DNA of 64,000 nt from Escherichia coli (GTDB taxonomy: Bacteria; Pseudomonadota; Gammaproteobacteria; Enterobacterales; Enterobacteriaceae): the NCBI RefSeq assembly GCF_013122565.1, contig NZ_CP053258.1; one strand, written 5' to 3'. The notes beneath the pieces were generated by a model that worked only from the letters and a program-made list of their open reading frames with translations, made no database searches and was not told where the DNA came from. Position numbers and translations under genes: made by a program. Shown here piece after piece: positions 29,302 through 33,946 of this stretch (positions are counted from its first letter, which is position 1; the number at the start of each line of letters is the position of its first letter).

Positions 29302-32300
29302 TTACCACTGAATACCGGCACCGAGTGCGGCGGAGTATTCACCCTGGCTATTGGTACTACCTTGTAATTTGTAGACCCAACGACCATTGGCGCTCACCAT
29401 CGACACACCTAAAGCAACTGCCGATTCACCGTTGTAAGTACCGCCACCAATAGAGGCCATGCTGGCACCTGGAGTGTAAGCCTGCGGCAGACCGGTCATT
29501 GCCATTGCAGAAGCGATACCACCGCTCAACTTGCTTTCAGTTTTAGACAGTTTGTTATCCATCTCAACCATCCGCTGATCGGTGTATTGCTTCGTTTCCT
29601 GCACGCTTTGCTTCAACTGCGCGTAGTTCACCGCGTCGTTGTTGTTGACGCCAGCGGAGACGTTGCTGATACGAGTCGTACCGCCGTTGCCCCCACCGAG
29701 GGTGATATTGCTATAGTCAACAGAACCATCAGCGTTGGTGTCGTAACGTACACCGCCCGCCTCAGAAGACTTCAACTGTGCCACGTTAACCGCATCGGTA
29801 GCATTTTTACCTGCAGCTACGTTGGTGATACGACGTTGATTGGTAGAGGAACCAACAGAGATCGTATTTTCTTCATCCGCCACGGAGCCTGCTCCCAGCG
29901 CGACGCTGTTATCTGCTGCAGCAATAGAACCAGAACCGATGGAAACGCTCTCTTCTCCTTGCGCGCTTGCTGCCGTACCCGTCGAATTAGCTTTAAAGTA
30001 TTTGGAATCACCGTTGACGACAATGGAACCAGACCCGTTCTCGATGTTGGTAATACGTGTATCAAGGCCGTTGATCTGATTCTCCATCCAGGCGATGTTT
30101 TGCGTATTTTGTGACACACGCTCATCCGTAACTTTCAGTTGACCCACGTTGACGGCATCGGTATCTTGCGAGCCCGCCGCGACGTTAGTGATCTGGCGCT
30201 GACCGTCTTCACTGCCCACAGAGAACTCACCCACTGAGCTCTGCGGCGCGTCCATGTTATAGGCGGTGTAACCAGTCTGTGCGCCACGGGTAGTTTGTGA
30301 ACCATTGCCCATCGCAATGCTGTTTGCATGGTTTGCACGAGCGTTGCTACCGATAGCAATACCATTGATAGCATCTGCCAGAACCAGCGTATTCAGGCCG
30401 ATACCAATCCCCGCATTGCCATTAACGACAGTTTTCGCTCCCATCGCCAGCGAGTCTTCCCCGACGGCCAGTGAGTCTTCTGCCGTTGAGTTGGCGTGGT
30501 AGTACTTGGTCGGTGTAGTTGTGACTGCACCAATCGCATTTTGCAGTTGGCGAACTGTAACGGCGTCATGGGCTTCTGAACCATCGGCTACGTTTATGAT
30601 TTGACGATATTTACCATCATCACCAATAGACAACGCGCCAAGCAATTCGCCGTCTGTGGTGTCATAACCAATAACAGCACCATTTCCCGTAATGCTGGTG
30701 TCACGAGAGCCTTTAACAATCACACGGCTGGAAACAGAGCTGCTACCCAGTGCAATACCGCCGTCGATGGTGCTATTGCTGTTTTGGCCGATGGCGACAC
30801 TGTTTGCGCCGGAAGCGCTGGCGTTATAACCCACCGCGGTTGCAGCCACGCCAGAGGCGCTGGCATCTTCAAAGGCCAGGCCGGTGTCATTAGTACGAAT
30901 ATAATTGACCCCTGCACCGTTTTCTTCGATATAAGCAGCACTGGTGTCACCGGCAATCTGGGTGATCAACATATTCGTGTCGTTCAATTGCGAGCCGTTT
31001 ACTGCATCGGTACTGCCAGCGGAAATATCACCTTTAGCGACATCGGTAACAACGCTATCGGTGCCACCGTGGCTGGCGCTAAATTCTCCGGTAGTACTTT
31101 CCCACATCAGGGCGTCGCCTGCTGAGCCTCCTGCTGAGACATCAATGGCGGCGAGGGCATCGCCAACGCTGGAGTATTCAGTACCATCAATGTTATAGGT
31201 TGGGCCGGTAAAGTTGCCGTTGGCGTCGACAGAAGCATTACCGCCGAAGTAGTCAGCGATGTCGCTGCTTAAGCTGTGAAGCTGGCTACCGTTAATGGCG
31301 TCGGTGCTGACAGAGGTTACCGCGCCAGCCATCACGTTGGTGATTTTGCTGGTAGCGGCAGTGCCATGCGCGGCGCTGAAGGCGTTGACACTGGAATCCC
31401 ACAGAAGAGCATCTTCAAGCGAATCGCTAACCGATGTATCAATCGCGTCCAGGGCGTCGCCAACGCTGGAGTATTCCGTACCATCAATGTTATAGGTTGG
31501 GCCGGTAAATTTGCCATTAGCGTCGACAGAAGCATTACCGCCGAAGTAGTCAGCGATGTCACTGCTTAAGCTGTGGAGCTGGCTACCGTTAATGGCGTCG
31601 GAGCTGGCAGAGGTTACTGCGCCATCCATCACGTTGGTGATTTTGCTGCTGGTGCCGGTGCCATGCGCAGCGCTGAAGGCGTTGGCGCTGGAGTCCCAGA
31701 GCAGGGCATCATCTTGCAGATCGGAAAGTGAATCGCCCAGGTTCGTGATGCTGATGGTGTTCGCCTGGATATTCGCGGTGTTCGTCGTAATTTCGGAGGT
31801 GTTCAACGCGATGTTGGAGGTGTTGGTCGCCACGTCCTCTTTTGTGGCGTTTAACTGAGAGCCATTAACCGCATCTTTACTGGTTGCAGAAATAACACCA
31901 TCTTTCACATTGATGATTTTGTTTTCTGCTACGGTACTGGCAATCGTTCCATCAGCATTTTTGACAATATAGCTGGCGCTGAAAGCCCCCCCGTTAGATG
32001 AGTCCCAGTGCAGGGTTTCATTGTCCAGATACTGGAGTGCTTCACCAACGTTATTGAAATCCCTTTTCTTCAGTTTATAAGACATCCCCTTTATTGTTCC
32101 GTTACTGGCTACATCTGCTCCGCCTCCCAGCCTGTCTGCTACCGACCGACTAATTTTGTAAAGCTGTGAACCGTTAATGGCTTCATTACTGTCCGTCGAG
32201 ATGTCACCTGCCGCCATATTGACGATGCGACGCTGTTGTGAGTTTGAGCCGACCGACACAACGTTGTCTTCATCTGTTGTAGAGTTTGCACCAATCGCGA

Positions 32301-33201
32301 CGGAATTACTCCCTCCTACATAGGACGAACTCCCCAATGCAAGACCGTTTGATCCAACCGCTGCACTACCAGTCCCGATCGCAATACCATTTGTGGCTGA
32401 CGCAGCGCTATTCTGGCCTAATGCAATGGTATTTGTGTTTAATGCTTGCGCATTTTGCCCAAAGGCAAGAGCGTTTGCGCCAGTAGCCGCTGCTGTATAC
32501 CCCAGAGCAACAGCGCTTTCTCCTGTTGAATTGCTGTTTGCGCCTAATGCGAGGCTATTTTGGCCTCTTGCCCTCGCTTGAGTACCTACAGCCGTCGCAT
32601 TTTCAGCAGCTTCGGTCTCTGCGCCTATCGCGATGGCGTTTGCTTCGCTAGTCAGGGCTTTTCTTCCTAATGCCAGGCTTTGCTCGCCGGTTGCCTTGCT
32701 TTCATTGCCGAAGGCTAACGCGTAATTACCTTTAGCAATTGCCATTACGCCCATTGCCATCGCGTAGTTGCCACTCGCATCGGCGGAGGCTCCCATTGCG
32801 GTAGCCCTATCGCCGCTAGCATAAGCATTAACCCCCAATGCGGTTGACGCATCGCCGCCAGCAGAACTTCTTGCACCGATAGACGTGCTATATTTACCTA
32901 AAGCGCTGGCGAGCTCCCCAATAGCCGTCGATGCTCCATCGGTACTTGTGTGCTGGCTCGCTGTAGAGTTCTTACCGATAGCAACCCATCCATCACCACT
33001 ATTATGTCCTGCAGGTACAACGGGATTACCCGCAACATTATCTGCATATGCAAATGTCGATAACATTCCGCTGGCTGCAATTAACGTCGATACGAGCAGC
33101 TTACTGCGTCCAGACTTCTTTCCTCGACTCTTCGCCGTTTCGCTGGCGACACGAAAATTGCCCGTCGCTGGATCCCAGATAACTTTAAAAATTTTATTCA
33201 T
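29302..33201 (-). CDS. upaG: Trimeric autotransporter adhesin (UpaG/EhaG/SadA family)
   Basis: 1299 aa intact ORF; N-terminal extended signal peptide [29 protein letters not shown]; repetitive head/stalk with neck-like DAVNGSQL motifs; C-terminal YadA-like anchor ending ...[10 protein letters not shown]; location next to lldP matches memory of upaG/sadA. Confidence 0.85.
31157..31750. repeat. Intragenic tandem repeat, 2 x ~297 bp, inside the adhesin gene
   Basis: Two adjacent ~297 bp units of about 90 percent identity, encoding two 99-aa stalk modules. Confidence 0.75.
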
Positions 33202-33244
33202 GGTTGATGTTCTCTATTTCTTGATTTAAGCGCAGCGAGCATAT

Positions 33245-33946
33245 TTATTTTTTGCTTTTCCGCTGTTGAGTTGCAGTGGGTTGAAGGTTGTCGAATTGAA
33301 TATTTGTCATATCGATAGCTAACTTCAGATAGCTAAGGTTGTTAGGCGAAATGCCTTTAAGTGTGAGATTGATGTCCTGCCATTGCCCCGGCATTAATTG
33401 CAATGAGGATTTCAGCGAGGTGCTGAAAAGCAGTTGTTGCCATTTATCATAAGCTTTTGGATCCGTAGGTCTCTCAGCACCCCATGTGGCGTGGAAGCCA
33501 ATGTTGGAGACAGGAACACTTAACAGATTGACCAACGAAATACGAATAACACTGCCGTTTTCAACCGCGTCGATGGATAGCACTCGTCCCGCCAAACCAA
33601 CTGAGCCGTTATTTAAAATGAAGTATTTAGTTTGCGCAGGGTTAAATTCTGTGAATAGAAACTCATTTTGTTGTTTTTTGATTTCCTTCACGGCATCGGT
33701 AAGTATTCTTGTACTTCCTGTGATAATGTTTTGTTGCTTTTCAATAAGTTCCGTTTTATTGATGTACTGTTCTTGCTGTTTCTCCAGGGCGTCTATTCTG
33801 TTTTTTTGTAATTCTTGCTGTTTGGTTAGATCATCTATTAATTTTGTTTTTTCAACATAGTCACACCCCGTCAACGTGTAGAGTGATACTAAAGCCAGTA
33901 CGCTTAAGAGTATTGCCTTGAAGTTAATCATTGAATTCCTTTTCAT
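33245..33946 (-). CDS. SadB-like inner-membrane lipoprotein, co-oriented upstream of the adhesin
   Basis: 233 aa ORF; signal peptide with lipobox LTGC then Asp at +2; N-terminal coiled-coil segment; 43 bp upstream of adhesin start. Confidence 0.7.
   Translation of the reverse strand: MKRNSMINFKAILLSVLALVSLYTLTGCDYVEKTKLIDDLTKQQELQKNRIDALEKQQEQYINKTELIEKQQNIITGSTRILTDAVKEIKKQQNEFLFTEFNPAQTKYFILNNGSVGLAGRVLSIDAVENGSVIRISLVNLLSVPVSNIGFHATWGAERPTDPKAYDKWQQLLFSTSLKSSLQLMPGQWQDINLTLKGISPNNLSYLKLAIDMTNIQFDNLQPTATQQRKSKK

Follow-up and report, generated by a model that had tools for sequence, protein, structure and literature searches.

What occupies the interval between lldP and yibL in the Escherichia coli assembly GCF_013122565.1, and did it arrive there from elsewhere? 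The window that we analysed is a stretch of 64,000 nucleotides (nt) from contig NZ_CP053258.1. In K-12 MG1655 yibL and lldP are neighbours with a 371-bp gap between them; here, the minus strand between the two genes bears two intact open reading frames (ORFs), 29302-33201 (1299 amino acids, aa) and 33245-33946 (233 aa). A sequence-only reading had described this unit as an accessory island, in which the gene for an inner-membrane lipoprotein with a coiled coil precedes that for an intact trimeric autotransporter, as in Salmonella sadBA and the upaG/ehaG locus of pathogenic E. coli, with a rather short passenger and an AT-rich tract of about 500 bp upstream. The comparisons below bear out the two genes and their placement, both homologies, the coiled coil, the short passenger and the AT-rich tract; the length of the lipoprotein probably needs revision, and the island did not hold up.

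Our answer, given with high confidence, is that the unit is an intact sadBA-type operon (sadBA in Salmonella, upaG/ehaG in E. coli), present as a rare, compact and divergent allele. It is built on what was observed directly: intact genes, their domains, homology and synteny, the rarity of the allele and the conservation of the promoter. Operons of this kind have been described before and are ordinary; new here are the rarity and divergence of the allele, the boundaries of the divergent block and a promoter core that is shared across genera.

The adhesin

The larger gene (29302-33201, minus strand) encodes what is by sequence a trimeric autotransporter (type Vc secretion), with a membrane anchor, an ESPR signal and a head/neck/stalk passenger. 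Pfam, scanned with two overlapping halves of the protein, placed ESPR (PF13018) at residues 1-45 (E 1.4e-13), YadA_head repeats at residues 73-321, 782-822, 912-968 and 1075-1119, nine matches to YadA_stalk (neck), and YadA_anchor (PF03895) at residues 1239-1299 (E 1.9e-19), the last residue being Trp. The N-terminal YadA-like head measures ~250 aa and would follow a putative signal cleavage after AYA (53/54), read from the sequence. A motif scan found eight neck motifs, four DALL-like motifs, two YFGG and two LGGG (FGG-like) motifs, two HANS/KANS motifs, and no cysteine at all. The exact protein is already deposited as WP_171460152.1 / QJU26385.1, 'YadA-like family protein [Escherichia coli]'.

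Structures of Salmonella SadA match the fibre: residues 882-1147 are 79.7% identical to fragment 2yo0 (E 3.6e-124), residues 1022-1225 match 2yo3, and the mid-fibre is matched by 2ynz, 2yo2, 3zmf and 2yny. The C-terminus matches the Hia anchor structures 3emo and 2gr7, and residues 121-224 match the YadA head 1p9h. Judged by this fibre homology, the site between yibL and lldP and the adjacent sadB gene, the protein can be classed as the positional orthologue of SadA, UpaG and EhaG. Part of its stalk, residues ~498-695 (31141-31723, minus strand), consists of a 297-bp (99-aa) module, bearing DALL, neck and FGG motifs, that is duplicated in tandem. The duplication was detected by Tandem Repeats Finder (period 297, 1.9 copies, 90% matches) and also in a separate repeat search; the two copies agree at 85/99 residues.

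Could a protein of this size be what is left of a decaying or truncated upaG/ehaG gene, shorn of its N-terminal modules and no longer functional as an adhesin? At 1299 aa it is the shortest seen at the locus, where the other alleles encode adhesins of 1458-2044 aa with 150-815 additional N-terminal residues in alignments. Yet the frame is intact from a complete ESPR through head, necks and stalk to the anchor and terminal Trp, sadB and the promoter core are intact as well, and the length of 1299 aa is shared by relatives 97.5% and 84% identical. Because the length has been kept in these relatives, selection on the 1299-aa architecture seems indicated, and we hold decay to be extremely improbable.

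The lipoprotein

The smaller gene was first read as a 233-aa lipoprotein in which Asp directly follows the lipobox Cys; its lipobox stands, and its length probably does not. The second ATG of the ORF (33931), 15 nt downstream of the ORF start, has AAGGA 5 nt upstream, whereas the first has GGAAG at only 3 nt; SadB homologues start at the position of the second ATG, and the protein collection holds the resulting 228-aa form and lacks the 233-aa form. On these three grounds the start is more likely at 33931, so that the gene would span 33245-33931 (minus strand). The signal peptide of the 228-aa form, MINFKAILLSVLALVSLYTLTG, ends directly before Cys23 of the lipobox L-T-G-C, with Asp24 at +2 and Tyr25 at +3; G-C-D-Y was invariant in an alignment of 12 diverse SadB homologues.

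One PDB entry was matched, 4c47 (Salmonella SadB; E 1.8e-65), in an ungapped alignment of residues 28-232, the entire mature protein, to chain residues 3-207. Identity over these 205 residues is 47.8% (coiled coil 35%, C-terminal domain 54%), and the absence of gaps carries over both the coiled coil of about nine heptads and the beta-sandwich C-terminal domain. Among the homologues the C-terminal domain is nearly invariant, while the signal peptide and coil vary. The E. albertii allele is without 14 residues of the coil (two heptads), and the E. fergusonii and Pseudocitrobacter alleles are without 3.

The protein also gave weak matches to Pfam DUF3251 and to the NCBIfam YajI model PRK11530 (19.7 bits against a family cut-off of 158), since SadB and YajI are a paralogue pair; E. 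coli orthologues in RefSeq are named 'SadB/YajI family lipoprotein' or 'DUF3251 domain-containing protein'. We class it by sequence as SadB-type, not YajI-type. Work on Salmonella SadB, in which C-D-Y is identical, showed it to be a trimeric lipoprotein of the inner membrane that brings more SadA to the surface and makes it more resistant to protease (PMC3953254). By analogy with such characterised homologues, the window protein would reside in the inner membrane and act as a helper of the adhesin.

A rare allele with sharp boundaries

The allele is absent from all 5,426 complete E. coli genomes searched: not one covers at least 80% of the locus, and DNA identity there is only 72-87%. The best of these genomes match ~50% of the locus at ~86% identity, with sadB at 72-77% DNA identity. 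Even whole sequence collections (~15 billion sequences) returned only a handful of matches to the allele. The 90% cluster of the adhesin has 3 members, and one more 1299-aa protein, from a Logan contig, is 84% identical; the SadB allele falls into three small clusters at 96-100% identity, the next being at 78% or less. Two sources, GCA_018578885.1 and a Logan contig from SRR11451197, have the same cassette at ~98%, upstream region included.

Binned DNA identity to other E. coli loci delimits the divergent part. The flanks are at 97-100%, as is the DNA from the yibL stop codon (34454) onward at 97-98%; the upstream region has no match, sadB is at 64-84%, the passenger at 58-89%, and the membrane-anchor end of the adhesin gene (29302-29800) returns to 95-100%. 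The divergent block has its edges at the yibL stop codon and just upstream of the membrane anchor. At the protein level, identity to other alleles is 64-78% for SadB and 54-62% for the adhesin, which against four E. coli alleles gave 54-59% over about 1200 residues. By these comparisons, the window carries a rare allelic cassette of promoter region, sadB and passenger, whose divergence from the other alleles matches the divergence among them.

A bolder proposal would make this a long-lived cassette that is swapped by recombination between the yibL end and the membrane-anchor DNA, in which the SadB coil is matched to its own passenger, so that helper and adhesin form allele-specific pairs, and in which the 1299-aa allele is a distinct functional and antigenic type under diversifying or balancing selection. 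We give this proposal a low probability.

Origin of the locus and the K-12 state

The two genes are absent from K-12, as they would be if an accessory island had been horizontally acquired from outside Escherichia and inserted between lldP and yibL. The alignment of K-12 to the window stops at 29244 and restarts at 34442, so that exactly 29245-34441 (5,197 bp) is lacking, with only a 2-bp AG microhomology at the junction; this state was called a 5-kb deletion at the sadBA locus by Grin et al. 2014 (PMC3953254). The gene order mtlADR-yibT-yibL-sadB-adhesin-lldP recurs in E. coli O157, where the two genes are annotated as ehaG and a DUF3251/SadB-family lipoprotein, and in three other E. coli genomes. 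The order yibL-sadB-adhesin-lldP is also that of Salmonella, E. fergusonii, E. albertii and Pseudocitrobacter, and in all the same locus holds the same position in at least four genera. Within E. coli, a query that covered sadB together with the 5' end of the adhesin gene matched 4,149 of the 5,426 complete genomes.

Composition and divergence could still be taken to favour acquisition: sadB and its upstream region are AT-rich (28-45% G+C), the allele is unlike any of the 5,426 genomes, and the best-scoring adhesin by hidden Markov model (HMM) beyond the allele's own cluster is that of Pseudocitrobacter. That adhesin, despite its high HMM score, is only 56.5% identical by BLASTP and its SadB ~70%, no closer than the E. 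coli alleles, and the anchor end of the gene is shared with other E. coli as noted above. A search among the homologues turned up no donor outside Escherichia; the closest SadB beyond the allele is at most 78% identical, and the closest adhesin 84%. A search of the locus for island hallmarks, namely a tRNA, an integrase-like ORF or flanking direct repeats, found none. An inserted island is therefore very unlikely. From the gene order shared across genera and the published account of K-12, the sadBA unit is best read as an ancestral polymorphic locus that was deleted in K-12; it is accessory only in the sense of variable presence.

Upstream region and promoter

Between yibL and sadB lie 523 bp of AT-rich DNA (33932-34454, minus strand; 31.7% G+C) with a hairpin directly after yibL (34427-34406), a candidate promoter and a 5' leader of ~180 nt. 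Its G+C content falls to 28% in 300-bp windows, while most of the window is at ~50-55%; the corresponding regions of other alleles are similarly AT-rich (545-560 bp, 29.5-34.6% G+C). By blastn against the 5,426 E. coli genomes no similarity was found upstream of about 33958, and the intergenic regions are essentially unalignable between alleles with the exception of one conserved block, TTTGACA...ATTAGAAT. This contains a candidate sigma-70 promoter (34118-34147, minus strand; TTGACA, 18 nt, TAGAAT; 11/12 consensus matches), with ~190 nt between it and the sadB start. Its -35 and -10 cores recur in 8 loci: four E. coli alleles, E. albertii, E. fergusonii, Salmonella and Pseudocitrobacter. Such conservation suggests that the block is the promoter of the operon, which would give the ~180-nt leader. 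A second block, TCTGAAAA (34322-34329, minus strand), lies ~180 nt upstream of the -35 hexamer. Across the 8 loci, which represent 4 genera, it varies little or not at all, and it could be a binding site for a regulator.

The spacer between sadB and the adhesin gene is 43 nt long (33202-33244, minus strand), and a scan found no terminator-like site in it on the minus strand. A 43-nt spacer also occurs in E. coli PapRG-06-5, Eco_24-2013 and the extraintestinal pathogenic E. coli (ExPEC) strain XM; for Salmonella sadB-sadA it was reported as 44 bp (PMC3953254).

Proposed mechanism and points against it

The two genes could work as follows. From one sigma-70 promoter, located in the AT-rich DNA that follows yibL, sadB and the adhesin gene would be transcribed together, and the operon would probably be silenced by H-NS. 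The adhesin would be exported by Sec via its extended (ESPR) signal peptide; three C-terminal anchor domains, inserted by Bam, would form a 12-stranded outer-membrane barrel, through which the head-neck-stalk passenger would pass to become a trimeric surface fibre for adhesion, autoaggregation or biofilm formation. SadB would be lipidated at Cys23 and retained in the inner membrane by Asp at +2, and as a coiled-coil trimer facing the periplasm it would improve the yield and integrity of the displayed fibre.

Several points weigh against this picture of an intact, working operon. (i) A generic promoter scan gave 8 sites against 8.1 expected in shuffled sequence, and the terminator scan was likewise unenriched over shuffled sequence; the promoter call therefore rests on conservation. 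(ii) The published high-affinity motif of H-NS, TCGATAAATT, searched with up to 2 mismatches, has no match in 33947-34454 and a marginal excess in the window as a whole, which says little either way. H-NS silencing is suggested here by AT-richness and by the repression of UpaG by H-NS, as stated in a passage of PMC5012682 that cites Totsika 2012. (iii) In ExPEC XM (NZ_CP025328.1, L005 7149-7832) sadB is annotated as a pseudogene with an internal stop, and the downstream gene for a 1583-aa adhesin is intact. This suggests that the helper is dispensable in some backgrounds or has been lost in some lineages. (iv) Co-transcription of the two genes and adhesin function of the 1299-aa allele are both attributed by analogy with characterised homologues.

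Neighbouring features

The flanking genes were placed by NCBIfam models: lldP, which ends at 28890/28917, by PRK10420 (1199 bits), and yibL (34455-34817) by PRK11020 (E 8e-57). On the 3' side of the adhesin gene, 29186-29272 is an element like the repetitive extragenic palindromic (REP) sequences; it resembles the K-12 mtlA-mtlD intergenic repeats and weakly matches naRNA4 (REP-derived), and the lldP-side end of the K-12 deletion (29244/29245) falls within it. Beyond it, 145 nt past the stop codon, lies a candidate intrinsic terminator of the operon (29128-29157, minus strand), a 13-bp stem followed by a T-rich tail, which is kept in K-12. The K-12 deletion also takes out the hairpin 34427-34406, so that in K-12 the REP element and the terminator-like site 29157-29128 come next after yibL. 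An Rfam scan of 28800-35000 (E up to 1) gave just two matches, both below threshold and close to the REP element; the 5' leader matched no known RNA.

Three observations concern the wider window. The lld operon (25200-28900) reaches at best 98.4% identity, at full coverage, to any of the 5,426 complete E. coli genomes. This is on the low side for the species and may mean that the strain comes from a lineage with few sampled members or that the flank is a mosaic. Positions 2000-10000 comprise ~8 kb at 31-36% G+C with a series of ORFs on the same strand, probably the lipopolysaccharide core (waa) cluster, judged by its position relative to the mtl/lld region. The 488-aa ORF at 35910-37376 is an over-extended mtlD, whose homologues have 382 aa; the extension enters the REP-like repeats of the mtlA-mtlD spacer (37148-37250), which are similar to the element 3' of the adhesin gene.

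Significance

UpaG and EhaG are known adhesins and vaccine candidates, and the contribution of the window is modest. As a further, very rare allele it shows how polymorphic the locus is: adhesins range over 1299-2044 aa, SadB goes down to ~64% identity, and the regulatory region is unalignable apart from the promoter core. This diversity is relevant to vaccine or typing schemes built on UpaG/EhaG. A compact natural passenger is useful for asking which stalk modules are dispensable, and the cross-genus promoter core and sharp recombination boundaries are leads on the regulation and evolution of the locus.

Comparison with known systems

The sadBA locus of Salmonella enterica (SadB, 4c47; SadA, STM3691) sits, like the unit in the window, between the mtl and lld operons, with the lipoprotein gene ahead of the adhesin gene across a spacer of 43-44 nt. 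The two SadB proteins share the lipobox, Asp at +2, Tyr at +3, the N-terminal coiled coil and the C-terminal beta-sandwich, and align without gaps; the C-terminal stalk of SadA is ~80% identical to that of the window adhesin. They differ in that SadB is only 47.8% identical and the passenger has diverged, and is put together differently, over its N-terminal two thirds. SadA has about 1461 aa; the Salmonella allele compared here encodes an adhesin of 2044 aa, against 1299 aa in the window.

YajI, the DUF3251 lipoprotein that is the paralogue of SadB, shares the family of the C-terminal domain with the window lipoprotein but, unlike it, is unlinked to an autotransporter (PMC3953254).

From the same species are EhaG of O157:H7 and UpaG of uropathogenic E. 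coli (UPEC) and ExPEC, whose functions are described in PMC7247748. These are positional orthologues with the same domain families, membrane-anchor DNA that is 95-100% identical and a SadB-family gene upstream. Over residues 64-1299 the window adhesin shares 55% identity with EhaG; with the adhesin of an ExPEC strain, a stand-in that may represent UpaG and is not CFT073 UpaG itself, it shares 54%. The window adhesin is without about 150-300 N-terminal residues present in the EhaG and ExPEC adhesins. The SadB proteins of those loci are 65-70% identical to that of the window, and in the upstream regulatory region the promoter core alone is common to all.

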